NCBI GenBank assembly: GCA_963783385.1
Contig: CAWANJ010000001.1
Span: 717,154-781,153, forward strand
Length of the DNA stretch: 64,000 bases
From: an uncultured Gemmatimonadales bacterium
GTDB taxonomy: Bacteria; Gemmatimonadota; Gemmatimonadetes; Palauibacterales; Palauibacteraceae
Direction of reading: 5' to 3'
Position numbers and translations under genes: made by a program. This document shows positions 21,504 to 58,530 of this stretch, piece by piece. Position 1 is the stretch's first letter, and each line of letters opens with the position of its first letter. The notes under the pieces are model-generated. The model was given only the letters and a program-made list of their open reading frames with translations, was not told the DNA's origin and ran no database searches.

Positions 21504-22667
21504 ATGTCGCGAAGCCTGGAGGCCGCCATGGCGGACGCGGACGCGGGCCGCCGCGCGCCCCTCGAGATCCGGCCCGGACCGGAGGGCCGCCTGATCGTCA
21601 AGCTCCCCTACGATCCCGCGCTCGTGCGCCGGATCCGCGGGATCGCGGGGCGGCACTGGAATCCGGCGGAGAAGCACTGGACGGTGCCCCGAACGCCCGG
21701 AACGGTAGGGCACCTCCTGGAGATGTTCGAGGGCGAGCCCGTGGTGCTGGACCCGGGTCTGGGCGGCTCGGGGCCGGTGGCGGCGATTCCCGCCGGGGAA
21801 GGAGACGCCGGCGAGCTCCTGGCCCGCACCCGCGAGGAGCTCGGGCTCCGGGGCTACAGCCCCAAGACCCGCCGGGCCTACGCCGGCCACGTGCGCCGCT
21901 TCCTGGAATGGCTGGCGAGGGAAGGAGGCGACACCGGGGACCCGGGCCAGGACGACCTCCGCCGGCACGTGGCCCGCCTCCTGGAGCGGAAGGGCGTGTC
22001 CCACTCCTACGCCAACCAGTGCGTGAGCGCGCTCAAGTTCCTGTACGAGCACGTGCTCGAGCGCCCGATCGGCCAGCTCCGGCTGCCGAGGCCCAAGATC
22101 GAGCGCAAGCTCCCCGTGGTCCTCTCGCGCGAGGAGGTCCGGCAGATCTTCCGGGCCGTCCCCAACCGGAAGCACCGCGCCCTCCTCATGCTCGTCTACT
22201 CCGCGGGGCTCCGGGTGGGGGAAGTGGTGCGCCTGCGGCCCGACGACCTGGACACCGGGCGAGGACTCCTGCACGTGCGGCAGGGAAAAGGCCGGAAGGA
22301 CCGGTACGTCATGCTGTCGGCCGTGGCCGTCGAGGCCGTCGAGGAGTACGTCCGCTTCTTCGAGCCCACGCGGTGGCTGTTCCCGGGCGCGAGGCCGCGC
22401 CGCCACCTGCACGAGCGCTCCGTGCAGCACCTGTTCGCCCGGGCGTGCCGCAAGGCGGGCATCCGGAAGCACGCCACCGTGCACACATTGCGGCACTCCT
22501 TCGCCACCCATCTTCTGGAAAAAGGCGTGAACCTGCGGTACATTCAGGAGCTTCTGGGCCACAAGAGCCCCAAGACCACCCAGGTCTACACCCGCGTCGC
22601 CGAAGGAGACCTGGCACGAATACAGAGCCCCCTGGACGATCTCATGCGGGACAAAGGCGCCGGCTAG
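21504..22667 (+). CDS. Tyrosine recombinase; candidate integrase of the downstream cassette array
   Basis: YSPKTRRAY SAM-like domain, KLPVVLSREEV, YSAGLRVGE, GKGRKDR, HTLRHSFATHLLE, LLGH...TTQVYT; no IntI-type insertion. Confidence 0.93.
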   Translation: MSRSLEAAMADADAGRRAPLEIRPGPEGRLIVKLPYDPALVRRIRGIAGRHWNPAEKHWTVPRTPGTVGHLLEMFEGEPVVLDPGLGGSGPVAAIPAGEGDAGELLARTREELGLRGYSPKTRRAYAGHVRRFLEWLAREGGDTGDPGQDDLRRHVARLLERKGVSHSYANQCVSALKFLYEHVLERPIGQLRLPRPKIERKLPVVLSREEVRQIFRAVPNRKHRALLMLVYSAGLRVGEVVRLRPDDLDTGRGLLHVRQGKGRKDRYVMLSAVAVEAVEEYVRFFEPTRWLFPGARPRRHLHERSVQHLFARACRKAGIRKHATVHTLRHSFATHLLEKGVNLRYIQELLGHKSPKTTQVYTRVAEGDLARIQSPLDDLMRDKGAG

Positions 22668-24182: not shown

Positions 24183-24250
24183 CATAGGGAGCATCCCTCA
24201 AAGGCATCGCAAGCCAGCCCACCACGCCATCATCCCAGATACCGAGTCAC

Positions 24251-24269
24251 GCCAACGAACGAGTTAAGC
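24251..24269 (+). promoter_or_regulatory. attI-like primary recombination site
   Basis: GCCAAC-GAACGA-GTTAAGC; the only cassette start not preceded by a folded attC-like site. Confidence 0.6.
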
Positions 24270-24300
24270 GCCACACGTATCCTTCAATACGGAGTGAATC

Positions 24301-24987: not shown

Positions 24988-25574
24988 CGGAATCGTCTGG
25001 GAGTAAGTGGCTTCACGAGGCCGCCCTAAACGCCAAGGGCGCGCAAGACTCCATCGACGCATTGCTTGGCGCCAACGAGACTCCATCTACGAAGAACTTG
25101 CGTGTCGAGGATGTTGAGGGTATCGGCTCAGCGGCCATCAGGGCTGCACTTGAGAGGGTCTCACCAGAGTTAGCGCGCAGCTACGATCAAATCCTCGAGG
25201 ACATTGCCGACCGCTCCCGTAAGTCATGGGCGGGTACTGCGCACGAGATCCGTGAGACGCTTGCTGCACTGCTAAGGTATATGGCCTCTGACGAGGAGGT
25301 CCAAGCACAGGCGTGGTACATTCAAAATTCGAACACCAATGGGCCCACACAGAAGCAGCGAGTCCGCTACATCTTGGAGACTCAATCTCCCTCGTCCAAG
25401 AGGGCAGATGTGGTCAAAGAGGTGTCGGTCCTTGAAGATCGAATTGGAAGGCTGGTTCGCGCCACATACGCACGAGCGAGCGATGCGGCACACCGTTTCA
25501 AGGGGCGGCGCGAGGTTATTCGAATACTCCGATACTTTGAGGTGTTCGCCCGCGATCTCATGGATCTTGACTAG
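24984..25574 (+). CDS. Cassette 1 gene B: predicted nuclease (pPIWI-associating nuclease/HEPN-like)
   Basis: AHEIRE...DEEV...WY...PTQKQRVRYIL and C-terminal SDAAH; GTGA overlap with gene A. Confidence 0.5.
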   Translation: MTESSGSKWLHEAALNAKGAQDSIDALLGANETPSTKNLRVEDVEGIGSAAIRAALERVSPELARSYDQILEDIADRSRKSWAGTAHEIRETLAALLRYMASDEEVQAQAWYIQNSNTNGPTQKQRVRYILETQSPSSKRADVVKEVSVLEDRIGRLVRATYARASDAAHRFKGRREVIRILRYFEVFARDLMDLD

Positions 25575-25588
25575 TGAGGACGTGCAGC

Positions 25589-25690
25589 GCTTAACACGAC
25601 GGGTGCCGCTTCACCGCCTGCGGCGGCTCGCCCTTCGGGACGCCCGCTCGCTGGGACTCGCGGGCGTCGGCAACCGCGGGGACGTTAGAC
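25589..25690 (+). repeat. attC-like site family A (~100 bp, 12 copies)
   Basis: TAACACGACGG(G/C)TGCCGC...GGCAACCGC..GGACGTTA; copies start 25589, 31971, 41789, 44180, 48153, 55519, 56927, 58770, 59521, 60912, 61696, 63221 (last has AGC for AAC). Confidence 0.88.
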
Positions 25691-25876
25691 GCCAGGTCCC
25701 CAAGACGGGGGTGATCGATTCCCGATTCGGAGGCGATGTCCCGAACCGCTGCCGCGAGAGGCGCAGCTCAGGCCGACCCCCGCTCGGAGGGAGAGAGAGC
25801 CTCCGAATCGAAGCTGAAGAGCGAATCGCTTAGCAGGTTGGAAGACAGGGCCACCGCTTGGATCGGGGGACCCGGC

Positions 25877-26032
25877 GTCTAACAGGATGGGTAGCGGCTC
25901 GCGCGCGAGGGCGCGCTCGCTTCAACCTGCTAGGCTTTTCGAAGGCGGGGATTCGGTGCGGGCTGCTAATCGAGGATCGGTCCGGCAGCGCAGAGCGGGC
26001 CAAGCAGGTTCGCTACCCACCGGACGTTAAGC
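25877..26032 (+). repeat. attC-like site family B (~156 bp, 7 copies)
   Basis: TAACAGGAYGGGTAGCG...AACCTGC...GCAGGTTCGCTACCCACCGGACGTTA; starts 25877, 27833, 28518, 29308, 32603, 34446, 62346. Confidence 0.88.
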
Positions 26033-26082
26033 GTCACGCTTATATCTCACCAACCTTGCTCAACGGATGTGGGCACCGGCCA

Positions 26083-26712
26083 ATGGAAACACTCAAGCCA
26101 CTTGACGAGATCTGCGAACCGGACACGCGACATACGATCTTCGGGGGATTTGATCCCGAGGGAGTCAAGGGCGAGGAGGGCGTTAGCCTTCAGACACAGT
26201 ATGCACAGATGGAGCGCCTGGAATTGCCAAAGTCTGTGCCCGAGACCGTTCGCTCGGCTTATGCGGTCACCCGCATGCTATGGGTCTACGGATGGTTCTA
26301 TTGGCCCTTCTACACACTCGCGCTCCTCCACGCCAACACCTGCCTTGAGATGGCACTCCATCAACGCTTCCTCAAGGACGGCTTGTACGATGAAGAGGGC
26401 GACTCATCTAGGAAGGCAAAGAACCGGACGCTAAGCTGGCTGATAAAGAGAGCCGTTGAGATGGGCTGGTTGGAGGACGAGGCTTTCGAGCACATTCGAT
26501 GGTGGACCCGGCAGACGCCTCCGTTCGAGAATGAGGGAGACGAATCGGGACACCAGACCGCACCCGATCCTCAGCGGTATGCGAAGACGCTGGCCTCGAC
26601 CATTCCGAGCACCCGAAATGCGCAAGCCCATCCGGGGCACTATTCGCACGGCTTCCCGCAGGTACTGCCACTTCAGAACGCTCGGGACATCATTGTGCAG
26701 TTGTTCATGTAG
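26083..26712 (+). CDS. Cassette hypothetical protein with a HEPN-like R-x4-H motif
   Basis: LEMALHQRF...TLSWLI...TRNAQAHP. Confidence 0.6.
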   Translation: METLKPLDEICEPDTRHTIFGGFDPEGVKGEEGVSLQTQYAQMERLELPKSVPETVRSAYAVTRMLWVYGWFYWPFYTLALLHANTCLEMALHQRFLKDGLYDEEGDSSRKAKNRTLSWLIKRAVEMGWLEDEAFEHIRWWTRQTPPFENEGDESGHQTAPDPQRYAKTLASTIPSTRNAQAHPGHYSHGFPQVLPLQNARDIIVQLFM

Positions 26713-26731
26713 CGCATTGGGGACGCGCGAC

Positions 26732-26887
26732 GCTTAACAGGACGTGTGGCGGCTCGCGCGCCAAGGCGCGCTCGCTTCAACCTGCGGAATGCTGGATGAA
26801 GCAGTCAGGGGAAACGAGACATGTAGCATATATCAGTCAGGCGAACGAGAGTGGCCCGCAGGTTCGCCACCCGCCAGAACGTTATCG
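26732..26887 (+). repeat. attC-like site family D (3 copies); further families listed in evidence
   Basis: B-like outer arms with ATGTAGCATATRTCAGTCAGGC interior at 26732, 27491, 31133; related family at 28883, 35153, 45086; singleton sites at 33754, 36366, 42651, 46409, 47153, 51956, 54595. Confidence 0.85.
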
Positions 26888-26994
26888 GACCTGAGCCGCT
26901 CGGCTAGCACGAGTGGATTGGTGGTTGGAACCCCTACGGCCCGGTGTACAGGTATCTGCTTGAGCAAGTGCCCGCGGCGGGAGGACTTCACTCA

Positions 26995-27558
26995 ATGTCG
27001 ATCCAAGCCTCGATCGCATCCTTATGCACGGTGCTGGCGGCTGTCTTCATGACCTTCGCGGTGCCCCCCAGGGGGACCCAGGCCCAGTCGGTCAAACTCC
27101 CGGCGCCGAACGTTCGTCTATGCTATGCGGACTGTGACAGCATCCCCTCGCTCCCCGATCACGCGGAGCCACACCTCGCGAACCCCTCCGTCATGTTTCA
27201 GGCCATGACGGAGGCGTACCGACAGAGACCCAAGACGGCTGCGATCGGTGGCAGCGCTACCGTGGCGATCCTCATTGGCCAAGATGGTTCGGTCCGAGAG
27301 GTTCGTCTCATCACCAGCTCTGGCCACGCTACAATCGACACCATGGCCGTAGCGGTCGGCAGCGTGATCCGGGCCGCCCCCCGGCCTGGAAGCAAGAAGG
27401 TGCATGCCCGCTGGTACGAGATGCCCATCGCCTTCGAGACGAGAGATGATGCGAGACAGCCGGTCTACGCCCCGTGTCGGAGATCAAGTCCGATAACAGG
27501 TCGGGTGGCGGCTCGCGCGCCAAGGCGCGCTCGCTTCAACCTGCGGGATGTCGCTTGA
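26995..27558 (+). CDS. TonB C-terminal-domain-like secreted protein; stop codon falls inside the downstream site
   Basis: Signal peptide, GSATVAILIGQDGSVREVRLITSSGH...PIAF. Confidence 0.6.
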   Translation: MSIQASIASLCTVLAAVFMTFAVPPRGTQAQSVKLPAPNVRLCYADCDSIPSLPDHAEPHLANPSVMFQAMTEAYRQRPKTAAIGGSATVAILIGQDGSVREVRLITSSGHATIDTMAVAVGSVIRAAPRPGSKKVHARWYEMPIAFETRDDARQPVYAPCRRSSPITGRVAARAPRRARFNLRDVA

Positions 27559-28175
27559 AGCCGTCAGCGAAGACGGCCCATGTAGCATATATCAGTCAGG
27601 CGGACGCGGCGGGCCCGCAGGTTCGCCACCCGCAAGGACGTTAGACGCCAGGTCCCCAAGACGGGGGTGATCGATTCCCGATTCGGAGGCAATGTCCCGA
27701 GCCGCTGCCTCCAGAAGCGCAGCTCGAGCCGAGTTCCGCCCGGAGGGAGAGAGAGCCTCCGAATCGAAGCTGAAGAGCGAATCGCTTAGCAGGTTGGGAG
27801 GCAGGGCCGCCGCTTGGATCGGGGGACCCGGCGTCTAACAGGATGGGTAGCGGCTCGCGCGCAAAGGCGCGCTCGCTTTAACCTGCTGAGGCCTCTCGCA
27901 GATGGGGATCCGATGCGGGCTGCTGATCGAGGATCGGTCCGGCATCCGAGAGCGGGCCAAGCAGGTTCGCTACCCACCGGACGTTAGGCGCCAGGTCCCC
28001 AAGACGGGGGTGATCGATTCCTGATTCGGAGGCGAGGTCCCGAGCCGCGGCCTCAAGAGGCGCAGCTCGAGCCGGACTCCGCTCGAAGGGAGAGAGAGCC
28101 TCCGAATCGAGGCTGAAGAGCGAATCGCTTAGCAGGTTGGAAGGCAGGGCCACCGCTTGGATCGGGGGACCCGGC

Positions 28176-28331
28176 GCCTAACAGGATGGGTGGTGGCTCG
28201 CGCGCGCTCGCGCGCTCGCAGCAACCTGCGGTAGCTTTTCGAAAAGGGGAGGCGATGTCGGCGGTCGATTCGGACGCGTCCAGCCCTACGGGTCAGTCCA
28301 GCGCAGGTTCACCACCCACCGGACGTTAGAC
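28176..28331 (+). repeat. attC-like site family C (~152-157 bp, 9 copies, all attached to gene-less cassettes)
   Basis: TAACAGGATGGGTGGTG...GCAGGTTCACCACCCACCGGACGTTA; starts 28176, 29650, 29990, 30328, 32260, 32945, 34789, 35497, 36712 (split by IS1595). Confidence 0.88.
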
Positions 28332-28706
28332 GCCAGGTCCCCAAGACAGGGGTGATCGATGCCCGATTCGGAGGCGATGTCCCGAACCGCGGCCGCGAGA
28401 GGCGCAGCTCAGGCCGACCCCCGCTCGGAGGGAGAGAGAGCCTCCGAATCGAGGCTGAAGATCGAATCGCTTCGCAGGTGAGCAGGCAGGGCCGCCGCTT
28501 GGATCGGGGGACCCAGCGTCTAACAGGATGGGTAGCGGCTCGCGCGCGAGGGCGCGCTCGCTTCAACCTGCTGAGGCTTCTCGAAGGTGGGGATTCGATG
28601 CGGGCTGCTGATCGAGGATCGGTCCGGCAGCGCAGAGCGGGCCAAGCAGGTTCGCTACCCACCGGACGTTAGACGGAATTCCAAAGGATTCTGAGGGAGC
28701 AGAGGA

Positions 28707-28871
28707 ATGCGCACACCGAGGCCACAGGGCTGGAGACCCACAATGTCCGCAGCCGCAGCAGCCGGTGCTGCCGGTCTCGGGGTCCCGACACACTCCCCTG
28801 TCTGGACCGCCTTCGGCGCACTCGTCGGTGCCACGATCGGTTACCTCGTCGCACTTCGACTAGACAAGTAG
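28707..28871 (+). CDS. 54-aa small membrane peptide (glycine-zipper-like), not in the ORF track
   Basis: MRTPRPQGWRPTMSAAAAAGAAGLGVPTHSPVWTAFGALVGATIGYLVALRLDK; purine-rich RBS; fills cassette 28668-28889. Confidence 0.6.
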   Translation: MRTPRPQGWRPTMSAAAAAGAAGLGVPTHSPVWTAFGALVGATIGYLVALRLDK

Positions 28872-29064
28872 AGAGGAACTCCGTCTAACAGGACGGGCGG
28901 CGGCTCGCGCGCTCTCGCGCGCTCGACCCAACCTGCGGTAGCTTTTCAGAAATCGGAACGGTGAGGTGGCGACCGGTGGAGAACCGCTCCGCCCTGCTCT
29001 TCAGGCCACCGCAGGTTCGCCACCCGCCGGGACGTTATCCGCAATCTCAAGAGGGTTAGGTTCG

Positions 29065-29283
29065 ATGCGCCGGTTTGACGTCTTCGGTCGAATGATGGGA
29101 GTCGATCGAAAGGACGACCGTTGGCAGGTCTACGATCTCGGGCCCGACGGCAAGCGTCGCGAAGCCCGCGACATCATGATCCCGGCATCGGTCCCCGAGG
29201 AGCAGCTCGCTCTCTACCTTGCGGAGATCTTCCATGAGTCAGCGTCGCCACGACGGCCCGAGGTGCTGGAACTGGACCCCTGA
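29065..29283 (+). CDS. 72-aa hypothetical cassette protein
   Basis: MRRFDVFGR...GPDGKRR...YLAEIFHE; fills cassette 29034-29314. Confidence 0.65.
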   Translation: MRRFDVFGRMMGVDRKDDRWQVYDLGPDGKRREARDIMIPASVPEEQLALYLAEIFHESASPRRPEVLELDP

Positions 29284-30531
29284 GCCAGCACGGGAGCGAG
29301 AGTCTGCGGATAACAGGATGGGTAGCGGCTCGCGCGCTGCGCGCACTCGCTTCAACCTGCTGAAGCTGTTCGGAGGTGGGGATTCGGTGCGGGCAGCTGA
29401 TCGAAGATCGGTCCGGCAGCGGAGAACCGGCCAAGCAGGTTCGCTACCCACCGGACGTTAGGCGCCAGGTCCCCGAAACGGGATGTGCCGGGTTCCGATT
29501 CGGAGGCGAGGTCCCGAGCCGCTGCCTCTAGAAACGCAGCTCAGGCTGAGCTCCACTCGGAGGGAGAGGATGCCTCCGAATCGAGGCTGAAGAGCGAATC
29601 ACTTAGCGAGATGACAGGCAGGGCCACCGCTTGGATCGGGGGACCCGGCGCCTAACAGGATGGGTGGTGGCTCGCGCGCTCGCGCGCTCGCAGCAACCTG
29701 CGGTAGCTTTTCGAAAAGGGGAGGCGATGTCGGCGGTCGATTCGGTCGCGTCCAATCCAGCGATTCAGGCCAACGCAGGTTCACCACCCACCGGACGTTA
29801 GGCGCCAGGTCCCCGAAACTGGATGTGCCGGGTTCCGATTCGGAGGCGGGGTCCCGAGCCACTGCCTAGAGAGGCGCAGCTCAGGCTGAGCTCCACTCGG
29901 AGGGACAGAATGCCTCCGAATCGAGGCTGAAGAGCGAGTCGCTTAGCGAGAGGGAAGGCAGGGCCACCGCTTGGATCGGGGGACCCGGCGCCTAACAGGA
30001 TGGGTGGTGGCTCGCGCTCGCGCGCTCGCGGCAACCTGCGGTAGCTTTTCGAAAAGGGGAGGCGATGCCGGCGGTCGATTCGGACGCGTCCAATCGAGCG
30101 AATCAGGCCAACGCAGGTTCACCACCCACCGGACGTTAGGCGCCAGGTCCCCAAGACGGGGGTGATCGATTCCTGATTCGGAGGCGAGGTCCCGAGCCGC
30201 GGCCTCAAGAGGCGCAGCTCGAGCCGGACTCCGCTCGAAGGGAGAGAGAGCCTCCGAATCGAGGCTGAAGAGCGAATCGCTTAGCAGGTTGGAAGGCAGG
30301 GCCACCGCTTGGATCGGGGGACCCGGCGCCTAACAGGATGGGTGGTGGCTCGCGCGCGCTCGCGCGCTCGCAGCAACCTGCGGTAGCTTTTCGAAAAGGG
30401 GAGGCGATGTCGGCGGTCGATTCGGACGCGTCCAGCCCTACGGGTCAGTCCAGCGCAGGTTCACCACCCACCGGACGTTATCAGAAACGCGCCCCAGCTG
30501 ATTGGAAATAGGAGATTGGTACTGCAGCGCC

Positions 30532-30819
30532 CTAGGTGGAGGACGCAGCCTTCCTGGCTGGCGGAGGAGCCGGGGTACCATCCAGCATGCCGCGGATGCT
30601 GATGTCTTCGTCAACGTCGGGCCAGTGAATGCCTTGACCAGCTCCGATAAGACGGAAGTTGGTGCGCTGTTGGGGCGTGGCTTCGCTCAAGCGCCACGAC
30701 CACGCGAGCGGGACACTGATCGTACGGCCGTCTGTCAGGCGCGCGATGATCTCATTGTCGGTCACCTCGACGTCGGTCGCCAAGGGTTCAGACGTGGCCG
30801 CAGTGTTCGTCCCAGGCAT
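30532..30819 (-). CDS. DUF2442 protein (TA-like pair)
   Basis: LTDGRTISVPLAWSWRL...GIHWPDVDEDISI. Confidence 0.85.
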   Translation of the reverse strand: MPGTNTAATSEPLATDVEVTDNEIIARLTDGRTISVPLAWSWRLSEATPQQRTNFRLIGAGQGIHWPDVDEDISIRGMLDGTPAPPPARKAASST

Positions 30820-31030
30820 TCGAGATCCTCTGGATGTGGGACTCAATCAAGCCCCGGATCCTGTTGAGCTCGCGCGGAGCGAAGCCATGGTTGCGAGCGA
30901 GAACCAACGGGTCCAGCCAGAACTTGCACGTGGACCGATCACGCTCGACATGCACATGCTTTGGCTCCCTGCAATCGAAGCTGTAGAAGAAGAACCGGTA
31001 CGGTCCGGAGATGTCTGAAATGGTTGGCAT
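30788..31030 (-). CDS. DUF4160 protein (TA-like pair)
   Basis: MPTI...GPYRFFFYS...EPKHVHV...KFWL. Confidence 0.85.
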   Translation of the reverse strand: MPTISDISGPYRFFFYSFDCREPKHVHVERDRSTCKFWLDPLVLARNHGFAPRELNRIRGLIESHIQRISNAWDEHCGHV

Positions 31031-31328
31031 CACGCGTCCCGGCCCGAGGCTTCTCTACCCTCAGATGCTAGCATACACCGAGGCGCCTCGCCAAGAGCCG
31101 CGTTGGCCTCGAGGTCCACGGTCGCGCGAATCTGATAACAGGACGGGTGGCGGCTCGCGCGCCAAGGCGCGCTCGCTTCAACCTGCGGAATGTCGGTTGA
31201 AGCAGTCACTGGAAGCGGGCAATGTAGCATATGTCAGTCAGGCAAACGAGGGTGGCCCGCAGGTTCGCCACCCACCGGGGCGTTATGTCAAATGGCGCGC
31301 CATTGGCCTACGAGGCTAGATTTCTCGT

Positions 31329-31616
31329 ATGACACCGGCGGTGGCTGAGCTTCGGGAGCAGGTGCGAGACGTCATGCGGAAGCGTGGGGTCGTCCGAGCC
31401 AGTGTGTTCGGGTCCGTGGCCCGCGGGGAGGATCACCCGGCGAGCGATGTGGACTTCCTCGTCGAGCTGGAAGAGGGACGGACCCTCCTCGACCTGGCTG
31501 GCCTGCGGCTGGATCTCGAGGACCTTCTGGAGCGCGACGTTGACGTAGCCACACCGGCTTCTCTCCATCCCCAGCTCCGCGAACGTATCCTCGAGCAGCA
31601 GGTCCCGATCTTGTGA
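31329..31616 (+). CDS. MNT antitoxin (copy 1)
   Basis: VFGSVARGE...SDVDFLVE. Confidence 0.88.
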   Translation: MTPAVAELREQVRDVMRKRGVVRASVFGSVARGEDHPASDVDFLVELEEGRTLLDLAGLRLDLEDLLERDVDVATPASLHPQLRERILEQQVPIL

Positions 31617-31957
31617 CGCGCTCGGCTCGGATCCTTCTCGGGGACATCCTTGAGGCAGCCGAGCTGCTCGAACGCTACACGGCCGGCATCTCCCACCAGC
31701 AATTCGCGAACAACCTCGAGAAGCAGGACGCCGTCGCCCGCCGGATCGAGGTCATTGGGGAAGCCGTCAAAGGCCTCCCCGAGTCCCTTCGCCAGCGGCA
31801 CCCCGAAGTGCCGTGGCGGGAGATTGCCGGAGCGAGGGATGTCCTGATTCACGAATACTTCCGAATCGACGTCAGGCTCGCCTGGGAGATGGTTCAGAAG
31901 GACATCCCGGACCTGGCAGCCAAGGTCCGGAAGATCCTGGGTGAACTCGAAGACTGA
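31613..31957 (+). CDS. HEPN/DUF86 toxin (copy 1)
   Basis: DAVARRIEVIGEA, PWREIAGARDVLIHEY. Confidence 0.88.
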   Translation: MTRSARILLGDILEAAELLERYTAGISHQQFANNLEKQDAVARRIEVIGEAVKGLPESLRQRHPEVPWREIAGARDVLIHEYFRIDVRLAWEMVQKDIPDLAAKVRKILGELED

Positions 31958-33207
31958 GGTCTGCCACTTCACATAACACGACGGCTGCCGCTTCGCCGCC
32001 TGCGGCGGCTCGCCCTGCGGGACGCCCGCTCGCTGAGACTCGCGGGCGTCGGCAACCGCGGGGACGTTAGACGCCAGGTCCCCGAAACAGGGGATGGTCG
32101 GTTCCCGATTCGGAGGCGATGTCCCGTAGCGCTGCCTCGGTGAACGCAGCTCAGGCTGAGCTCCACTCGGAGGGAGAGGATGCCTCCGAATCGAGGCTGA
32201 AGAGCGAATCGCTTAGCGAGATGGAAGGCAGGGCCACCGCTTGGATCGGGGGACCCGGCGCCTAACAGGATGGGTGGTGGCTCGCGCGCGCTCGCGCGCT
32301 CGCAGCAACCTGCGGTAGCTTTTCGAAAAGGGGGAGGCGATGTCGGCGGTCGATTCGGACGCGTCCAGCCCAACGAGTCAGGCCAGCGCAGGTTCACCAC
32401 CCACCGGACGTTAGACGCCAGGTCCCCAAGACGGGGGTGATCGATTCCCGATTCGGAGGCGATGTCCCGAACCGCTGCCGCGAGAGGCGCAGCTCAGGCC
32501 GACCCCCGCTCGGAGGGAGAGAGAGCCTCCGAATCGAAGCTGAAGATCGAATCGCTTAGCAGGTTGGGAGGCAGGGCCGCCGCTTGGATCGGGGGACCCG
32601 GCGTCTAACAGGATGGGTAGCGGCTCGCGCGCGAGAGCGCGCTCGCTTCAACCTGCTAGGCTTTTCGAAGGTGGGGATCCGATACGGGCTGCTGATCGAG
32701 GATCGGTCCGGCAGCGGAGAGCGGGCCAAGCAGGTTCGCTACCCACCGGACGTTAGGCGCCAGGTCCCCGAAACAGGGTGTGCCGGGTTCCGATTCGGAG
32801 GCGATGTCCCGAACCGCTGCCTCCAGAAGCGCAGCTCGAGCCAGCTTCCGCTCGGAGGGAGAAAGAGCCTCCGAATCGAGGCTGAAGAGCGAATCGCTTG
32901 GCGAGATGGCAGGCAGGGCCACCGCTTGGATCGAGGGACCCGGCGCCTAACAGGATGGGTGGTGGCTCGCGCGCGCTCGCGCGCTCGCAGCAACCTGCGG
33001 TAGCTTTTCGAAAAGGGGAGGCGATGTCGGCGGTCGATTCGGACGCGTCCAGCCCAACGAGTCAGGCCAGCGCAGGTTCACCACCCACCGGACGTTATAA
33101 GACATGCCATAGACGGGTGGGCCGATGGACCGATATCTACGTTGGCCTTGCGCCCCTTCGTGTCCGATGGGGAGCTGGGCAGCCGCTCTGGCCCGATCGG
33201 AGATGAG

Positions 33208-33606
33208 ATGACAGACCTCAACGAGTTCACGCTGGAGCAGGCCGAGGCGGCGGCCGCGAAGTTGTGGGCGTTCGGCAGCGCCCCTTTCCCGATGGCGGAC
33301 GGCGCGGTCATACAGGGTCATGTTGAGAAAGCTGTGACTGATACGGCCATCGCTTTCGCCATCCACGTGCGCCGCCTCCTAGATAATCACGGCATCCGTA
33401 CCCGATTCACGCTTGATGAGCCGTTTGTGCACTGGTCACCAACCGGCTCTGCGCCGAAGGTGGCGGTTCTTCGGGATGCCTTGAATCGAATCGTGCATGC
33501 CATTGATTTCGAGGTCGGCTTTGAGCGTCTACCGGATGATCAACACAAGATCAAAGGTGGCGCGATCACGGTCCTGGTACCTTCGGACCAGAACCGACCA
33601 ACGTGA
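33208..33606 (+). CDS. Hypothetical cassette protein, probably frameshifted at the 3' end
   Basis: LRDALNRIVHA motif; protein-like sequence continues in another frame. Confidence 0.5.
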   Translation: MTDLNEFTLEQAEAAAAKLWAFGSAPFPMADGAVIQGHVEKAVTDTAIAFAIHVRRLLDNHGIRTRFTLDEPFVHWSPTGSAPKVAVLRDALNRIVHAIDFEVGFERLPDDQHKIKGGAITVLVPSDQNRPT

Positions 33607-33875
33607 GGAAGGGCTGATCGACGTGTTCGCGCTTGCGTCCTGGCTTCTACCACCAGGTCTTGCCCGCGGTGCGTGGTCTTGGCCCCGATATGGCGTAACT
33701 TCCAGGTGGCGGAATGCTATTGATGCCTGGGTGTGCGGTGTGGTGGGCACGTCTTATAACAAACGGGTGCCGCCTTCGCTCGCTGCGCTCGCTCCGGAGA
33801 ACACGGCCCGCGGTGCGGGCCGCGTCGGCACCCTAGGACGTTATGTGCAAGTTCGGAACTAGCGCGAAGGTAGGA

Positions 33876-34145
33876 TCAGAGACGAGATAGTAGGTCATCA
33901 TAGTCGGCGTGGGAGCCGATCCAAAACCAGACGAGATCCTCCTGATCGCGGACACAGAGGGCCCGGTAGCCGCGACCGACGCGCGCGGAGTAGACCGGCC
34001 GGGAGGGATGAACCTGCTTGAACTGAAGGCTCGGATGCGTCGGGTCACGCTGAAATCGACGGTAGGCAATCCGGGCCTGCCGTTGAACGTGCGCTGGAAG
34101 TTGTGCGAAGGCCTTACGAAAGCGCGAGGTCGTGTGGGACGTCAC
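33876..34145 (-). CDS. RelE/ParE-fold toxin
   Basis: RFRKAFAQLP...PTHPSLQFK...YSARVGRGYRAL...WFWIGSHADYD. Confidence 0.85.
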   Translation of the reverse strand: MTSHTTSRFRKAFAQLPAHVQRQARIAYRRFQRDPTHPSLQFKQVHPSRPVYSARVGRGYRALCVRDQEDLVWFWIGSHADYDDLLSRL

Positions 34146-34360
34146 AGCGCATCGGGCTCGAGCGGCTTGGTCCGCCCGCGTCGATGCTCTTCCAGGGCTT
34201 CGTCGGCTAGGGACTCAAGGTGGCTTGCCGACGCGGCGAAGGAGCGGTCCCACTCCTCATCCGACTCGATCTCGTCGAGGAGAATCGCCGCTAGGGCGTC
34301 CTGCTGCTCGGAGGGCAGCCTCCTGGCCGCCTCGATCGCCTTCTTCAGTAGCTCGGTCAT
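34142..34360 (-). CDS. Antitoxin partner of the RelE/ParE-like toxin
   Basis: MTELLKKAIEAARRLPSEQQDALA...WDRSF; GTGA overlap. Confidence 0.8.
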   Translation of the reverse strand: MTELLKKAIEAARRLPSEQQDALAAILLDEIESDEEWDRSFAASASHLESLADEALEEHRRGRTKPLEPDAL

Positions 34361-34976
34361 CGTTTCCTCCGCCGTTCGGTGAATTCTACGCCGGCAGCCT
34401 GCACAAGTGCCAGCGGCCAGGCGAGCCACTCGGCGCCAAACCTGCACATAACAGGACGGGTAGCGGCTCGCGCGCGGAAGCGCGCTCGCTTCAACCTGCT
34501 GAAGCACTTCGGAGGTGGGGATCGGATGCGGGCTGCTGATCAGGGACCGGTCCGGCAGCGGAGAGCCTGCCAAGCAGGTTCGCTACCCACCGGACGTTAG
34601 GCGCCAGGTCCCCGAAACAGGGTGTGCCGGGTTCCGATTCGGAGGCAATGTCCCGAACCGCTGCCTCCAGAAGCGCAGCTCGAGCCAGCTTCCGCTCGGA
34701 GGGAGAAAGAGCCTCCGAATCGAGGCTGAAGAGCGAATCGCTTGGCGAGATGGCAGGCAGGGCCACCGCTTGGATCGAGGGACCCGGCGCCTAACAGGAT
34801 GGGTGGTGGCTCGCGCGCGCTCGCGCGCTCGCAGCAACCTGCGGTAGCTTTTCGAAAAGGGGAGGCGATGTCGGCGGTCGATTCGGACGCGTCCAGCCCA
34901 ACGAGTCAGGCCAGCGCAGGTTCACCACCCACCGGACGTTAGACGGAATTCCAAAGGATTCTGAGGGAGCAGAGGA

Positions 34977-35141
34977 ATGCGCACACCGAGGCCACAGGGC
35001 TGGAGACCCACAATGTCCGCAGCCGCAGCAGCCGGTGCTGCCGGTCTCGGGGTCCCGACACACTCCCCTGTCTGGACCGCCTTCGGCGCACTCGTCGGTG
35101 CCACGATCGGTTACCTCGTCGCACTTCGACTAGACAAGTAG
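34977..35141 (+). CDS. 54-aa small membrane peptide, second copy
   Basis: Cassette 34938-35159 appears identical to 28668-28889, including the downstream site. Confidence 0.6.
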   Translation: MRTPRPQGWRPTMSAAAAAGAAGLGVPTHSPVWTAFGALVGATIGYLVALRLDK

Positions 35142-35781
35142 AGAGGAACTCCGTCTAACAGGACGGGCGGCGGCTCGCGCGCTCTCGCGCGCTCGACCCA
35201 ACCTGCGGTAGCTTTTCAGAAATCGGAACGGTGAGGTGGCGACCGGTGGAGAACCGCTCCGCCCTGCTCTTCAGGCCACCGCAGGTTCGCCACCCGCCGG
35301 GACGTTAGGCGCCAGGTCCCCAAGACGGGGGTGATCGATTCCTGATTCGGAGGCGAGGTCCCGAGCCGCGGCCTCAAGAGGCGCAGCTCGAGCCGGACTC
35401 CGCTCGAAGGGAGAGAGAGCCTCCGAATCGAGGCTGAAGAGCGAATCGCTTAGCAGGTTGGAAGGCAGGGCCACCGCTTGGATCGGGGGACCCGGCGCCT
35501 AACAGGATGGGTGGTGGCTCGCGCGCGCTCGCGCGCTCGCAGCAACCTGCGGTAGCTTTTCGAAAAGGGGAGGCGATGTCGGCGGTCGATTCGGACGCGT
35601 CCAGCCCTACGGGTCAGTCCAGCGCAGGTTCACCACCCACCGGACGTTAACTGAAAGGTGCCTGTGGATTCAGAACGGGGCCTGAGACAGAGAGAGATGG
35701 ATGCTGGAGGAGGCGTGGCGACCCAACTCAAGGGACACGTGCGGACGGCTGGCCACGGCCGACGTATCAAGAGGAGGCGCG

Positions 35782-36279
35782 ATGCGAAGAGGCACGTCAG
35801 CGACGGTGGCTGAATTCCTCGGGAGTCTTCCAGTTGACCGGCAGACGACCGTGGAGGCGGTGCGGGCCGTGATTCGTCGACACCTGCCCCAGGGCTACGA
35901 GGAGGTGGTGGCAAAAAACATGCTGGTCTATCAGGTGCCGCTCAGCCGGTATGCGGACACCTACAACGGCCATCCGCTGTGGTATGTGGCGTTGGCGTCG
36001 GAAAAGTCGTACCTCTCGCTGCATTTGATGCCGGTATACGGGAGCGCTATCTACGCGGAGCGCCTAGCAGAGGGCTTCCGAAAGGAAGGCAAACGCCTGG
36101 ACATGGGTAAGGCATGCGTACGGTTCCGGAAGATTGAGGACCTAGCCCTCGCTCCGATCGGTGAAATAGTTGAAAGCGTGCCGGTGGATCGTTGGGTGGA
36201 GATTGCCAAGAGCGCGCGATCTCGAAGATCGCGGGACGGATCTGCTGGCCGCGCCACACCGGGTGCAGGCGACGGATAG
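35782..36279 (+). CDS. DUF1801 (YdhG-like) protein
   Basis: VAEFLGSLP...LPQGYEE...DMGKACVRF; GAGGAGG RBS. Confidence 0.8.
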   Translation: MRRGTSATVAEFLGSLPVDRQTTVEAVRAVIRRHLPQGYEEVVAKNMLVYQVPLSRYADTYNGHPLWYVALASEKSYLSLHLMPVYGSAIYAERLAEGFRKEGKRLDMGKACVRFRKIEDLALAPIGEIVESVPVDRWVEIAKSARSRRSRDGSAGRATPGAGDG

Positions 36280-36793
36280 AGGCGGTCCGGAAGCATTGGT
36301 AGAGGATTGTTAGCGCCGAGGTGGTGTGGCGACGAGCGGTGCTGTAGTACGCACCGGCACCCATCAGTTAACAAACAAGTTGCGCCTACGCCGCGCATGC
36401 GCGGCTCCGGGGAACACCGGCGCAAGGCACGCGGGCCGTGGGAAGCGTGCCGAGAATGTGTCGAAGAGCGGTGCTCGACGGGCCGTGACGGACGCGCCGG
36501 CGTCGCAACTTTAGGAACGTTAGGCGCCAGGTCCCCGAAACAGGGTGTGCCGGGTTCCGATTCGGAGGCGATGTCCCGAACCGCTGCCTCCAGAAGCGCA
36601 GCTCGAGCCAGCTTCCGCTCGGAGGGAGAGAGAGCCTCCGAATCGAGGCTGAAGAGCGAATCGCTTGGCGAGATGGCAGGCAGGGCCACCGCTTGGATCG
36701 AGGGACCCGGCGCCTAACAGGATGGGTGGTGGCTCGCGCGCGCTCGCGCGCTCGCAGCAACCTGCGGTAGCTTTTCGAAACGGAACTATGCAC

Positions 36794-36822
36794 TTGACAA
36801 ACCCATGCGCCCATGGTACCTT
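36794..36822 (+). promoter_or_regulatory. Sigma70-type promoter for the transposase, overlapping the left TIR
   Basis: TTGACA-17 nt-TACCTT with TGn extension. Confidence 0.6.
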
Positions 36823-36845
36823 TCATAGTAGAAAGGGGAGCTACC

Positions 36846-37754
36846 ATGAGCATGACGTTCGCGGAAGCATTGGCTCTGTCGGAGAGCGAGGCAAGGACCT
36901 ATCTGGAGCGCATCCGCTGGCCGGAAGGTCCCGTGTGCCCCCATTGCGGCGCGTCGGACCGGATCTATGACCTCCAGGGTAGCGCGCACCGCGAGGGCCT
37001 CTACAAGTGCGGATCCTGCCGGAAGCAGTTCACGGTCACGGTCGGTACCGTCATGCACCGGACCAAGATCCCGCTCCGCAAGTGGGTTCTGGCCTTCCAG
37101 ATCCTGTGCGCGTCCAAGAAGGGTGTCTCGGCCCTGCAGCTCCAGCGGATGCTGGACCTCGGGTCCTACCGGACCGCATGGCACATGGCGCACCGCATCC
37201 GGCTTGCCATGCGGGAAGAGCCACTCGCCACCATGCTCCATGGGCACGTGGAGGTCGATGAGACCTACATTGGCGGCAAGACACGGAAGGGCATCCGTGG
37301 GCGGGGCTCGGAGCGGAAGACCCCGGTCCTGGCACTCGTGGAGCGGAACGGCCGCGTGCGGTCGCAGCCCGTCCAGCGCGTGTCCGGCAAGGAACTCAAG
37401 GCCGCGATCCGGGAGCAGGTTCACAAGTCGGCCGCGATCCACACCGACGAACTGGCCTCCTACAAGGGCATTGGTGCCGAGTTCGAGGGCGGACATCACG
37501 TGGTGCGGCACGGACGGGGCGAGTACGTTGCCGGTCCGGCGAGCACCAACACCGCTGAGAGCTACTTTGCCCTGCTCAAGCGGTCGATCCACGGAGCCTA
37601 TCACAGCGTGTCGAAGAAGCATCTGGGGCGCTACCTCGACCACCAGGGCTTCCTGTGGAACACCAGGGACCTTCCGGATGGGGCGAGAGTGGATGCGGCG
37701 GTCCGCGGAGTCGGTGGCAAGCGGCTTACGTATTCGACGCCACGTAACCGGTGA
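36846..37754 (+). CDS. IS1595-family transposase
   Basis: RWPEGPVCPHCG zinc ribbon, VEVDETYIGG, IHTDE, TNTAESYF. Confidence 0.95.
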   Translation: MSMTFAEALALSESEARTYLERIRWPEGPVCPHCGASDRIYDLQGSAHREGLYKCGSCRKQFTVTVGTVMHRTKIPLRKWVLAFQILCASKKGVSALQLQRMLDLGSYRTAWHMAHRIRLAMREEPLATMLHGHVEVDETYIGGKTRKGIRGRGSERKTPVLALVERNGRVRSQPVQRVSGKELKAAIREQVHKSAAIHTDELASYKGIGAEFEGGHHVVRHGRGEYVAGPASTNTAESYFALLKRSIHGAYHSVSKKHLGRYLDHQGFLWNTRDLPDGARVDAAVRGVGGKRLTYSTPRNR

Positions 37755-37830
37755 GGATTGCGTGTTACAACGTAACCTTGTTACAGCTAACAGCGATGAC
37801 TAGATTCGATGGGCTACTTGACAGCGGCAA

Positions 37831-37932
37831 TGCGGGCGACCGGCTTTGCACCGGCACGGGGCAGCCTCGGGTAAGGGTTTGCGCCCCACCGACTCCCAAG
37901 GTCGGCGTGTCTACTAGTTCCACCACGCCCGC
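37831..37932 (-). tRNA. tRNA-like element: class II (Leu-type) body, TGG (Pro) anticodon, atypical T-loop, no encoded CCA
   Basis: GCGGGCG/CGCCCGC-A acceptor; GTG-GAACTAGTAGA-CAC D-arm; CCGAC-CTTGGGA-GTCGG anticodon arm; GGGGC...GCCCC long variable arm; GCCGG-TGCAAAG-CCGGT T-arm. Confidence 0.7.
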
Positions 37933-38094
37933 AGCGGAGGTCCAGGCCGGGCTGGTGCGGCGTACCGTACCGCCCATTCGGGGCGCGTACCCAACGCCCC
38001 TTACCCGGTCCTGGCCCGTCAACCGGTCGCGGCTACGCCCGCGCCCGGCCCCTCACGGCCCTCACGGACACCACCCGTGGGGGCCGTCTTCATC

Positions 38095-38505
38095 CTATCG
38101 GATCTTGTACCGTTTCTCGCGGCTTCCCTTCACGGGATCCAGCTTTACGTACACGTTGTCCTCGGTGGTCCCGTGATGCAGGTCCCAGCGCACGGAGTTC
38201 TTATTGAGCACCTCTCCCGTGCTGGCGCTCCGCTCCACGATCTCATTGATCGTAAGTGGGCTGTCCGCTCCGCGAAGGATGGTGGTGACTCGCTCTCGAA
38301 TGCTGACATCTCCGGCAGCACCGGCCGATGCGTGGGCCTTTCCATTGCGCCCGGCACCGGCTGCACCCGTCTTCTGGACGGCGTCAACCAGCTCCTTCAG
38401 CGTCTCGTGGACCAACCGCTGGAGTTCCAGTTTGCGCTCCGCCTGCCGGATCTCCACCTCGCTATCCTCGAGCTTCTTCCGGAGCAGATCCATGACTTCT
38501 GTCAT
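38095..38505 (-). CDS. IS passenger: coiled-coil plus winged-HTH-like protein
   Basis: Heptad-like N-terminus; IRERVTTIL...PLTINEIVE...KNSVRWDL. Confidence 0.55.
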   Translation of the reverse strand: MTEVMDLLRKKLEDSEVEIRQAERKLELQRLVHETLKELVDAVQKTGAAGAGRNGKAHASAGAAGDVSIRERVTTILRGADSPLTINEIVERSASTGEVLNKNSVRWDLHHGTTEDNVYVKLDPVKGSREKRYKIR

Positions 38506-38630
38506 TGTTTCGGAACTCCTTTCGGCGGGCCAGCCATCACTCAGTGTTGGTGGACTGATGGAAGGTAAGCGCTCAGGCATGGAGGAGCAAGGAGGCCATC
38601 CGATGGGCCATCACTCGAGGAGGGCATCCT

Positions 38631-38801
38631 ATGAGTAAGCCGCATGACAAGGAGTCAGGAGAGCGGGATTCGCTCTCCCTTCATCCCCTGGAGTTGGATG
38701 AAGCCATGGCCGGTTTCCTTCAAGTGGACCCCAAGAAGGTGAAGGAGGCGGAACATGAAAGGCAGCATGAAGACGAGAATGACACTCGGGAGGACCGATG
38801 A
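38631..38801 (+). CDS. 56-aa IS passenger peptide, ATGA-coupled to the RM gene (not in the ORF track)
   Basis: GAGGAGG RBS; MSKPHDKESGERDSLSLHPLELDEAMAGFLQVDPKKVKEAEHERQHEDENDTREDR. Confidence 0.6.
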   Translation: MSKPHDKESGERDSLSLHPLELDEAMAGFLQVDPKKVKEAEHERQHEDENDTREDR

Positions 38802-41347
38802 GGTCGCTCGTCGTTGACGCCCTATCTGGCCGAGAAGTAATCGCCGGCCCAGAGGAACGGGACGCAACGCAGCCTTTTGTCTTCTATCTGACGCAGCGCC
38901 TCGGCTGGCATCCGAAGCAGATCATTACTCGTCCTCAGTGGCGAGTACCCAAGTCCCCGTCGTCGCCAAGAAGCTCGGGCTATCCAGTAGACATTGCCAT
39001 CTTTGACTCAGAGGAGTACGCGGGAGACCCCGACCACATCCAGATCATTGTAGAGTGCAAAGCGCCAAGCGAGGATCAGGGAATAGGGGAGCTCAAGACC
39101 TACCTGGGCTTAGAGCCAGAAGCACGCCTTGGCATTTGGTTCAACGGTGAGAAGCATGTGCTGGTATGGAAGGTGGCGGACGGCTTCTCGGTCGACAGAT
39201 ATGGACCAGTGCCGCGCTCAACCGACCCGTTAGCGCCAACCGAATCGCAGCCTCCGCTTCGATATGTAGACCTCGTACCGCCGCCCAACCTAGGCGAGAT
39301 TTTCCGTAGGCTTCGGGACCGCATTGCCGCGCAGGACACGCACGTCAACAGGGATGAGTTCATTCTAAACGATCTTGCCAACCTACTCGTGTGCAAGATA
39401 GCCGACGAGCAGGAAGGACAATTGGAGCCCAATCGGCCGATGGCGTTTCAGCTGGCGGGTTCGCAGAAAGCCACAGCGGAGTCGATTCGCCGCTACTTCA
39501 CGGAGATCAAGAATCGACTAACATCCGTGTTCACGGACAGAGATGAGCGATTGCACATTGACGACGAGAGCTTGGAAGAAGTGGTGCGAACACTTCAAGC
39601 CTACATTTTGCTCGACCATGACAGACATGCCGTGGGCACGGCGTTTCAGGTCCTTCGCGGTCGAGCGTTAAAGGGCGAGGAGGGCTCCTATTTCACCCCG
39701 CCGCCGCTCGTTGACTGCGTGGTGTCCATCCTAGACCCTGATCACGGCACTCGACTCGTTGATCCGGCTTGTGGAACGGGCGGATTCTTGGCGGCTGCTC
39801 TCGATCACGTTTTCACTGGGATCGACAACAAGAAGCTGTCCGCCGATGCGAAGACACGCGCTAAGACCACATGGGCGGGCGAATCTCTCATTGCGGTAGA
39901 CAAGGATGCAGTATCCACGAAGCTATGCAAGGCATACCTCACCCTTCTTGGAGATGGGCGGTCACACGTCTACCGGGCAGATGCGATTGACCGGACCGCG
40001 TGGGGCGAGCGGGCCGATGACCTGCAACGGGTTGTGGCGAGCGGGACCTTCGACCAGGTCATGACTAACCCGCCGTTCGGATCGAAGCTCAAGATTAGCG
40101 CGGATACCGGTCGCCAGGAGCAGTTGCTGGTATGCAGGAGGTGGGTCGACGCAGGATCTGAATGGAAACCAACCGACGAATGGACGGACCAGCAGCTCGG
40201 CATCGCATTCTTTGAGCGTGCTGTGGATCTCCTAAGCAACGGAGGAAATCTCGCCATCGTTCTTCCGGAGACCTTTCTGTTCTCCCCAAGCTTCAAATGG
40301 TTCATTGACTGGATTTGCCGAACTCTTACAGTTACCCATGTTGTCGACGTTCCCATGGTAGCATTCGAGGAGTTTTGCCGCGCCAAGACGTGCCTCGTCT
40401 TCGTCCGAAAGACCAAGCCATCCCCCGGACATTGCACGGTCATGAGCTTCCCACGATCTATCGGACAAGACAAGCGGGGCAAGCCTCTCTTCGCGCTCAA
40501 TGGAGAGGGCGTAAGAAAGGAGGGGGAGGGCCTTGACAATGAAATGGCGGAGGCCGTGAAGGAGATCGTTTCGAGGGGCTACAGGGGCAAGACGAAAACG
40601 GATCGCAAGGGAAGCCATGGTCGCTATTGCTTCACAGTAGCTCAAGCGGACATCAGGAGGCGTGGCGTTCTTGTCCCCCGCTTTTGGTGGAGGTCACATA
40701 CTGACGATGCTTTACATGAATGGTCAGAGAAGCACGACAGCCGGATACTGAGCCTCGGTGAGCTTGCAGACCGCGGAGCGATTGAAGCCTTCAGCGGACA
40801 TGGCTCGCCACCAGGAAATGCGAGGGGAACCGGAAAGGTCCCTTATGTGAAGGTTACCGATCTGAAGAACTGGCGCATCAACGAAAACCCGACAAACTTC
40901 ATTCACCAGAGCATCGCAGAGAAGTATTGGGCACGCGGACCGTCACTTGAGTACGGAGATTTGATCTCTCCCGCTCGCGCTTCATTGAACATCGGACAGT
41001 TTTCGATGGTGCTACCGTGGCAGACTCGCATCGTGGTGACTCGTGAGGTGCTAATCTTACGCGTCCACGACAACGATCTAGGGATAGACCCGTTCCTGCT
41101 GCTTGTGCTCCTTTCCTTGAAAGTGGTGCAGGACCAATACGAGAACCTCGCTCTCATGCAGACCAACAGGGAGCATTGAGGAGACCACTGGCGCGAAGTC
41201 CAAATCCCGATACCGGCCACAGAGTCTGCCAGGAAGCAACTGTCGCGTCCCGTGCGGGATTACTTCGATGCGATCATAGCGGCTCGCGAGTCATACCGAA
41301 GAATCTTCACCAAGTACGACCGTCAGGATTTCGGCACAAGGCCATGA
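38798..41347 (+). CDS. Fused restriction endonuclease/N6-adenine methyltransferase/specificity protein (Type IIG-like); in-frame TGA at 41177-41179
   Basis: VDIAIF...VECK nuclease motif, YFTP, DPACGTGGFL, NPPF, TRD-like tail; frame stays open for 55 codons after the TGA. Confidence 0.85.
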
Positions 41348-41521
41348 CGGCGGCGCACTGGGTTTGTCAACGCCATAGTTCCGTTTCGAAAAGGGGAGGC
41401 GATGTCGGCGGTCGATTCGGACGCGTCCAGCCCAACGAGTCAGGCCAGCGCAGGTTCACCACCCACCGGACGTTATGCGAAAACCGATGAATGGCCAGAT
41501 CCTTCTGGACTACAGAGGCCC

Positions 41522-57213: not shown

Positions 57214-58530
<1,317 letters not shown>

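Follow-up and report, generated by a model that had tools for sequence, protein, structure and literature searches.

In a stretch of 64,000 nucleotides from an uncultured Gemmatimonadales bacterium (GenBank assembly GCA_963783385.1, contig CAWANJ010000001.1, positions 717,154 to 781,153 of the forward strand; the whole stretch is referred to here as the window), an integron carries next to its attI site 13 copies of a gene-less element. Each copy consists of a non-coding body of 200 bp followed by an attC site, and our analysis supports the view that these units are minimal cassettes moved by the integron recombinase and that some of their lineages have spread recently. As to how they became so many, we incline to the view that integrase-mediated excision of the replicative kind, followed by reinsertion at attI, multiplied the family.

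Searches for repeats and for motifs agree on 13 copies, counted in the assembly, between positions 25684 and 36718 (Table 1), with a body of 200 bp in 12 of them and of 201 bp in the copy that starts at 32066. Each body opens with GTTAGRC, closes with GYCTAAC and is followed by an imperfect palindrome of ∼150 bp that terminates in GGACGTTA; body and palindrome (the attC site) together make up a cassette unit of 338-344 bp. The attC sites belong to family B in four copies and to family C in the other nine. With cassette boundaries taken from the list of core sites, 13 of the 24 attI-proximal cassettes are copies of the element, as compared to none of the ∼18 distal ones (hypergeometric p ∼1e-4 for zero distal copies), and the array holds all copies there are, as none was found elsewhere in the 3.54-Mb, 9-contig genome. 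On all of these points (the number and length of the copies, their attI-proximal position and the distribution of the two attC families) an initial annotation of the window, made by a model from the sequence alone, is borne out, and the genome-wide search for further copies that it proposed has now been carried out.

The evidence that the element is an integron cassette lies in its boundaries, its attC site and its mobility within an intI/attI array. A crossover point of the form G|TTRRRY is found on both sides of all 13 copies, with GTTAGRC as the start and the GTTA core of the next cassette as the end. The attC site has the layout GYCTAAC-AGGA-TGGGTGGTG ... CACCACCCA-CCGGAC-GTTAGRC, which comprises the R''/R' cores, an unpaired spacer of 4/6 nt, an L box of 9 bp and a long variable region, and on the bottom strand the L box is predicted to pair with a probability of 0.93 and the R box of up to 0.9 (folding probabilities are model outputs for 37 °C with DNA parameters). 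Particularly telling are the cassettes at 27983, 30135 and 35304, which lie in three different contexts, with differing neighbours on both sides. That these copies look identical had been noted before; the identity in fact covers the entire cassette, at 100% over 342 bp, and stops exactly after the GTTA of the crossover core. Together, the crossover bounds and the identical cassettes in different contexts support the earlier proposal of a gene-less minimal cassette that uses the integron recombinase.

Other copies are nearly identical in their bodies, with 1-2 differences among those at 32752, 34596 and 36519 and 4 between those at 25684 and 32410. Across the 19 distinct full copies available from the window and from metagenomes, all of them from one narrow lineage, divergence has a median of 28 and a maximum of 43 of 200 positions. 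The recent proliferation that the initial annotation read from the proximal clustering therefore applies to the identical and near-identical lineages near attI and not to the family as a whole: the identical or near-identical cassettes in different contexts, their clustering at attI and the position of the element directly at attI in three related loci (see below) support a recent spread of some lineages within a family that, overall, is not young.

One of three same-genus genomes carries the element, directly after the attI sequence and cut by the contig end; locus L014, mentioned below, is from a same-genus genome. Further, eight of the 11 metagenome contigs matching the pattern of the internal stem carry the element and contribute 8 full copies, each of exactly 200 nt, which brings the exact 200-nt body to 20 of 21 full copies; the remaining three matches (L019, L021, L026) are unrelated low-GC sequences. 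Neighbouring copies are found in three of these contigs (L024, L027, L029). Three loci outside this genome extend to the platform (L014, L028 and L022), and in all of them the element is the first cassette: the ∼75-nt attI sequence that directly precedes the junction in the window recurs in L014 and L028 and, more diverged, in L022, and the element follows directly, in place of the window's first cassette. Where present, the integrase of these loci is 97-99% identical, and L014 and L028 have a common platform and different variants of the element. These metagenomic contexts may stem from close relatives and are not independent. Outside the genus, the element was not found by BLAST in 60 relatives, and a covariance model run on 113 further genomes from the same family gave no matches, although this model also missed the truncated copy in genome G003 that BLAST had detected. 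A scan of GTDB representative genomes for a conserved 22-nt block returned three matches, which lie inside a coding gene of alphaproteobacterial metagenome-assembled genomes and are due to chance. Some short contigs from four metagenome runs join cassettes in other orders (e.g., 31280 to 36518 in X1 and X2), but with matching sides of ∼25-30 letters they are unreliable and were not used as evidence.

Despite 72 variable columns, the alignment of the bodies contains a single indel, of 1 nt, while the variable region of the attC sites of the element cassettes shows length differences of up to 5 nt. Most conserved are the arms at the two ends of the body (1 of 18 columns varying), an internal stem (1 of 12) and columns 117-201 (19 of 85); the variable columns are found mainly in 19-40 (15 of 22) and 53-116 (36 of 64). 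Stops occur in some copies in all six frames, the three phases have similar shares of the variable columns (21/24/27, p=0.69), and the only frame that is open in most copies is + frame 2, which has a GGAGG ahead of an ATG. The body is thus non-coding, and as regards a conserved translated ORF, which the initial annotation had held to be fatal to its proposal, both the substitution pattern and the stops speak against one.

Folded as a whole, the 200-nt body reaches z-scores of -5.7 (+ strand) and -6.3 (- strand) relative to shuffles. These are mostly due to the arms, because the core alone (165 nt, columns 19-183) has a mean z of only -0.8 to -1.4 relative to dinucleotide shuffles, on both strands and with RNA or DNA parameters. 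The two strands also fold alike (-102.3 and -102.4 kcal/mol with RNA parameters), which points to symmetry at the DNA level more than to a strand-specific RNA. As circular single-stranded DNA (ssDNA), the element cassettes have a predicted paired fraction of 65-73% and a folding energy of -0.23 to -0.27 kcal/mol per nt, as compared to 60-69% and -0.17 to -0.24 kcal/mol per nt for neighbouring ordinary cassettes; the rod-like, almost fully paired circle of ∼340 nt envisaged earlier accordingly finds no support, as pairing of only ∼70%, close to that of the neighbours, is predicted. What stands of the proposed self-complementarity are the 18-bp arms and the 12-bp internal stem (GATTCGGAGGC/GCCTCCGAATC, columns 41-52/117-128), which is paired in all 19 distinct copies and variable on both flanks, whereas the core folds no better than shuffled sequences.

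Covariation adds little to this picture. The predicted consensus structure has 61 pairs, of which 39 are invariant and 2 changed on both sides. One of the two belongs to the R'/R'' core, whose pairing any attC should show (A-T in nine copies and G-C in nine, with a single exception), and is the sole clean case; the other fails to form in 6 of 19 copies. At 0.071, as compared to 0.067 in shuffles, the covariation score is matched by 49 of 500 shuffles, although the power of this comparison is low because it rests on 19 distinct sequences in which 39 of the 61 pairs do not vary. In Rfam 15, searched up to an E-value of 10, no family matches the element at gathering score, the best E-value (4.6) being noise, and the structured non-coding RNA (ncRNA) suggested by the initial annotation thus gains nothing from either covariation or Rfam. 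Antisense pairing of the element with the intI/attI platform was not detected. Two further ideas were rejected: the body is no more similar to attC than shuffles are, and so is not derived from it on this measure, and an enrichment of CGAATCG is accounted for by the copies themselves.

The arms, described previously as a property of the element, do exist in their full 18 bp, but 15 of the 18 positions are generic to the attC structure of this integron. They combine the 7-bp R'/R'' core with an outer stem of 8 positions, which all cassettes of this integron possess, and 3 extra pairs. When the first bases after the core are compared with the bases just before R'', the two ends of the same cassette match at 7.2 of 11 positions, as compared to 3.8 of 11 across different cassettes (16 non-element cassettes of the window, from its part 24266-63316), and this end pairing recurs in cassettes of independent metagenome contigs (L024, L025, L027, L029), clearly in 7 of 8. 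A comparison position by position of 21 distinct non-element cassettes shows Watson-Crick pairs at +1 to +3 and +5 to +8 in 18-20 of them, and pairing ceases beyond +8; since the sequences differ between cassettes, this is true covariation. Position +4, on the other hand, is never a Watson-Crick pair: in 18 of 21 cassettes it reads A·C on the top strand, so that the bottom strand has a G·T wobble, and as the wobble is available there only, it would favour the folding of the strand that recombines. The arms of the element follow the same layout (GCC-A-GGTC... and ...GACC-C-GGC, with the A and the C invariant), and in a thermodynamic model that includes them, the R and L boxes are paired with a probability of 0.84 instead of 0.19 on the bottom strand and of 0.45 instead of 0.007 on the top strand. 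A search for the outer stem in other genera found relatives of the integrase in 10 of 89 other same-family genomes, and the three stretches and five shorter loci inspected are without recognisable cassette arrays. If confirmed, the outer stem would extend the definition of attC beyond the well-studied Proteobacteria, provide a new handle on strand selection and possibly improve the prediction of cassette boundaries in metagenomes, and this side finding may outweigh the element itself in importance.

As described in the part of the work of Loot and colleagues considered here, attC sites recombine as folded bottom strands, the product is resolved by replication, and an excised cassette can be duplicated at the other chromosome's attI site (Loot et al., 2012, PMC3458562). 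Applied to the element, which has no genes of its own and would be moved in trans by the integron integrase as a non-autonomous passenger, this would mean that the folded bottom strands of two flanking attC sites are recombined and a circle is freed from one daughter chromosome only, which could then reinsert at attI of the chromosome that retained its copy and so give rise to a duplication. Since the element has no gene to express, its insertion beside attI would probably come at little cost to the host, and copies would accumulate attI-proximally, through a drive that we infer to be selfish or neutral. Integrons are usually viewed as stores of useful genes, and on this account cargo-free passengers can occupy the capture machinery; moreover, a non-coding cassette that holds more than half of the newest positions would dilute or insulate the expression of real cassettes.

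Several observations weigh against such amplification of a mere passenger. The cases in which the element is first at attI are few (three), and two of them have a common platform. The attC of the element is no more foldable than ordinary ones, with a bottom-strand R-box probability of ∼0.9 in all 23 cassettes modelled in the context of the circular junction, and because this value is alike in all of them we found no feature that would make the element more recombinogenic. In a model of linear ssDNA, the arms of the body (probability 0.63-0.74) out-compete the R box of the attC that lies between two bodies, whose R and L boxes together drop to a probability of 3e-4, so that arm competition could reduce excision in this model, not raise it. 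Finally, the body is clearly constrained in both length and sequence, unlike a purely functionless passenger; the conserved, length-fixed core would then have a role, and the constraint may act either on the geometry of the DNA as it recombines or on an RNA. We put forward tentatively a more far-reaching idea: attC would be built of three helices in this integron (the L box, the R box and the outer helix of 8 positions, with its bottom-strand G·T aiding strand choice), and the element would be an integron parasite, a minimal cassette pared down to the requirements of recombination and a length-tuned spacer, which out-competes gene-bearing cassettes for attI and takes up the end of the array that is expressed.

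If the constraint acted on RNA, the element would be a functional non-coding or cis-acting RNA, made along with the array transcript from the promoter of the platform, possibly a transcript stabiliser, a polarity insulator or a small regulatory RNA, whose copies near attI are kept for highest expression. We judge this unlikely, although it is the alternative with most in its favour: a length fixed at 200 nt in 20 of 21 copies in spite of up to 43 differences, the recurrent position at attI in three related loci, the 12-bp stem in 19 of 19 distinct copies, in which GGAGG pairs with CCTCC, one-sided changes that keep a G·U on the + strand (columns 36/181, 39/179, 153/177 and 154/176), and the lower variability of paired as compared to unpaired columns (25 of 122 and 47 of 79, respectively; p=3e-8), a comparison that is partly circular, as the structure was predicted from the same sequences. 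It is countered by the two-sided changes in just 2 of 61 pairs and a covariation score barely different from that of shuffles, the lack of an Rfam family at gathering score, the equal foldability of both strands, the z of -1.0 to -1.4 for the core without arms under RNA parameters, the absence of an antisense match to the integron platform, and changes that are tolerated on the opposite strand only, at columns 10/192 (6 copies) and 159/172 (4 copies). A promoter-bearing gene-less cassette that drives the cassettes downstream, as in Vibrio superintegrons and Treponema integrons, seems improbable to us and this role is disfavoured, although the element likewise has no ORF and its best-conserved part, the 3' 85 nt of the body, lies beside attC. 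The precedent here is the sense-strand promoter activity reported for most of the 29 gene-less Vibrio cassettes tested, in the part of the study that we draw on (Blanco et al., 2024, PMC11014356). Thirteen copies, many of them side by side, are not what would be expected of such a role, no sigma-70-like site was predicted on either strand of 27600-30600 (seven full copies and part of one), and the hexamer TAnnnT is seen by eye on neither strand of the aligned body; this counter-evidence is weak because the promoter consensus of the host may differ, and a section title in the same study holds that such promoters are not identifiable in silico (Blanco et al., 2024, PMC11014356).

The two remaining alternatives we consider hardly credible. 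A small protein of ∼48 codons could be read in + frame 2, starting at the ATG that follows GGAGG and ending at a TAA within the R'' core. This frame is free of indels and preceded by the GGAGG, and in 17 of 19 distinct copies no stop interrupts it between the position of the ATG and the TAA; however, 6 of the 19 have AGG or GGG in place of the ATG, including the cassette present in three copies, in-frame stops occur in two copies, only 2 nt separate GGAGG from ATG, and third codon positions are the least variable (14, as compared to 19 and 21), the opposite of what is expected of coding sequence, so that the substitution pattern largely refutes this reading. Likewise, the contig of the window does terminate inside the cassette array, at the window end, as might be the case if the copy number were an assembly artefact, with a repeat collapsed or expanded; yet the 13 copies comprise 11 distinct body sequences with unique cassettes lying between them, neighbouring copies occur independently in three metagenome contigs, and the genome is assembled in just 9 contigs. 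Amplification by replicative excision and reinsertion at attI remains the reading that we prefer.

Table 1. Features of the integron and its gene-less element in the window (positions are those of the window).
Feature	Coordinates	Strand	Remarks
Integron integrase gene intI	21504..22667	+	Pfam Phage_integrase (2.5e-44) and Phage_int_SAM_4
attI region	24190..24272	+	Crossover G|TT with G at 24266, where the first cassette starts; extent inferred
Element cassette 1	25685..26026	+	Body 25684-25883; family B attC
Element cassette 2	27641..27983	+	Body 27640-27839; family B attC
Element cassette 3	27984..28325	+	Body 27983-28182; family C attC; identical to 7 and 12
Element cassette 4	28326..28668	+	Body 28325-28524; family B attC
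Element cassette 5	29458..29797	+	Body 29457-29656; family C attC
Element cassette 6	29798..30135	+	Body 29797-29996; family C attC
Element cassette 7	30136..30477	+	Body 30135-30334; family C attC; identical to 3 and 12
Element cassette 8	32067..32410	+	Body 32066-32266 (201 nt); family C attC; sole indel (1 nt, alignment column 29)
Element cassette 9	32411..32752	+	Body 32410-32609; family B attC; 4/200 differences from cassette 1
Element cassette 10	32753..33094	+	Body 32752-32951; family C attC; 1 difference each from bodies 11 and 13
Element cassette 11	34597..34938	+	Body 34596-34795; family C attC
Element cassette 12	35305..35646	+	Body 35304-35503; family C attC; identical to 3 and 7
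Element cassette 13	36520..36780	+	Body 36519-36718 and 5' part of family C attC
IS1595-family transposon	36781..41384	+	∼4.6 kb; inside attC of element cassette 13

The platform upstream of the array is that of an integron whose intI and cassettes share one orientation. The best NCBIfam model for the integrase is TIGR02249 (integron integrase), at 223.7 bits under a cut-off of 265 bits, and its named relatives are Gemmatimonadota recombinases and integron integrases. Between intI and the junction at 24266 lie a helix-turn-helix (HTH) gene and a toxin-antitoxin pair (MNT/HepT). In L022, where the integrase is 99% identical, this pair was not found and a different gene, which by eye may resemble a HigA-type antitoxin, lies just upstream of attI. 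The first cassette of the window (24301-25574) encodes two genes, with a DUF5343 and a predicted pPIWI-associating nuclease domain (pP_pnuc_1), and this pair is possibly defence-related.

The transposon is separate from the element and bounds the element-rich zone distally. It interrupts the attC of cassette 13 at ∼36781, which continues at ∼41385-41472, and is identified by its transposase (36813-37754, DDE_Tnp_IS1595, 3.9e-37), by terminal inverted repeats and by the 8-bp sequence TTTCGAAA repeated at both ends. It also carries a gene with an N6_Mtase domain (38798-41179), for a large N6-adenine methyltransferase or restriction-like protein. Of the other cassettes in the zone, an ordinary one of 366 bp with a small ORF is found twice, at 28668-29033 and 34938-35303, with 99-100% identity, so that duplication is not confined to the gene-less element. 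The genes of the cassette at 33840-34595 appear by eye to be on the minus strand, as for a toxin-antitoxin cassette in reverse orientation. Family C attC sites (at 28216-28241 and at the equivalent place in others) have a short GC hairpin followed by TAGCTTTTCG and were flagged as terminator-like, in a scan that gave 4 sites as compared to 2.1 expected from shuffles. In the distal array, a match to the ALIL pseudoknot (RF01497, 109.8 bits), a frameshift element of IS3-family insertion sequences, is found at 58086-58202 on the minus strand.

Gene-less cassettes are reportedly known from the integrons of Treponema or of oral metagenomes, from work by Tansirichaiya and colleagues in 2019. Like the gene-less cassettes of Vibrio, as far as these are covered in the part of the study used here (Blanco et al., 2024, PMC11014356), the element is bounded by core sites, has its own attC, lacks a credible ORF and belongs to a sedentary chromosomal integron. 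It differs from the Vibrio and Treponema cassettes in that no promoter-like site was found in it in the stretch scanned, in its 13 copies, which account for more than half of the attI-proximal cassettes, in a body fixed at 200 nt, and in its high-GC host, called Gemmatimonadota-like after the names of the integrase relatives. With the cassette duplicates that arise through replicative resolution, in the portion of that study considered above, it shares whole-cassette units, crossover-exact boundaries and clustering at attI, but its amplification is on a larger scale and its unit is non-coding (Loot et al., 2012, PMC3458562). A resemblance also exists to miniature inverted-repeat transposable elements (MITEs) and other non-autonomous elements moved in trans, which are likewise short, non-coding, multicopy, flanked by terminal inverted repeats and dependent on a foreign enzyme. 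MITEs, however, combine their inverted repeats with target-site duplications and scattered copies, whereas the ends of the element are integron core sites, its arms are the attC core and the outer stem, target-site duplications are absent, its copies are confined to the cassette array, and the enzyme it depends on, a tyrosine recombinase, has folded single strands as its substrate. The element works in the manner of a non-autonomous mobile element but does not belong to the MITEs.

The canonical attC site comprises an R box, an L box, an unpaired central spacer, extrahelical bases and a variable terminal structure, and the part of the source consulted for this description names no feature beyond the R box (Nivina et al., 2016, PMC5027507); here, the helix runs 8 positions further, with a G·T at +4, and in the element it is followed by 3 more pairs. 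As far as our searches go, this outer helix with its bottom-strand wobble, seen in this lineage, is undescribed in open-access text, and neither an amplified gene-less cassette nor an extended-stem cassette was found described in the open-access literature. The element is a new family of the known gene-less and duplicated kinds of cassette, and what sets it apart from them is the degree of its amplification, its recurrence in first place next to attI, and a length that is fixed.

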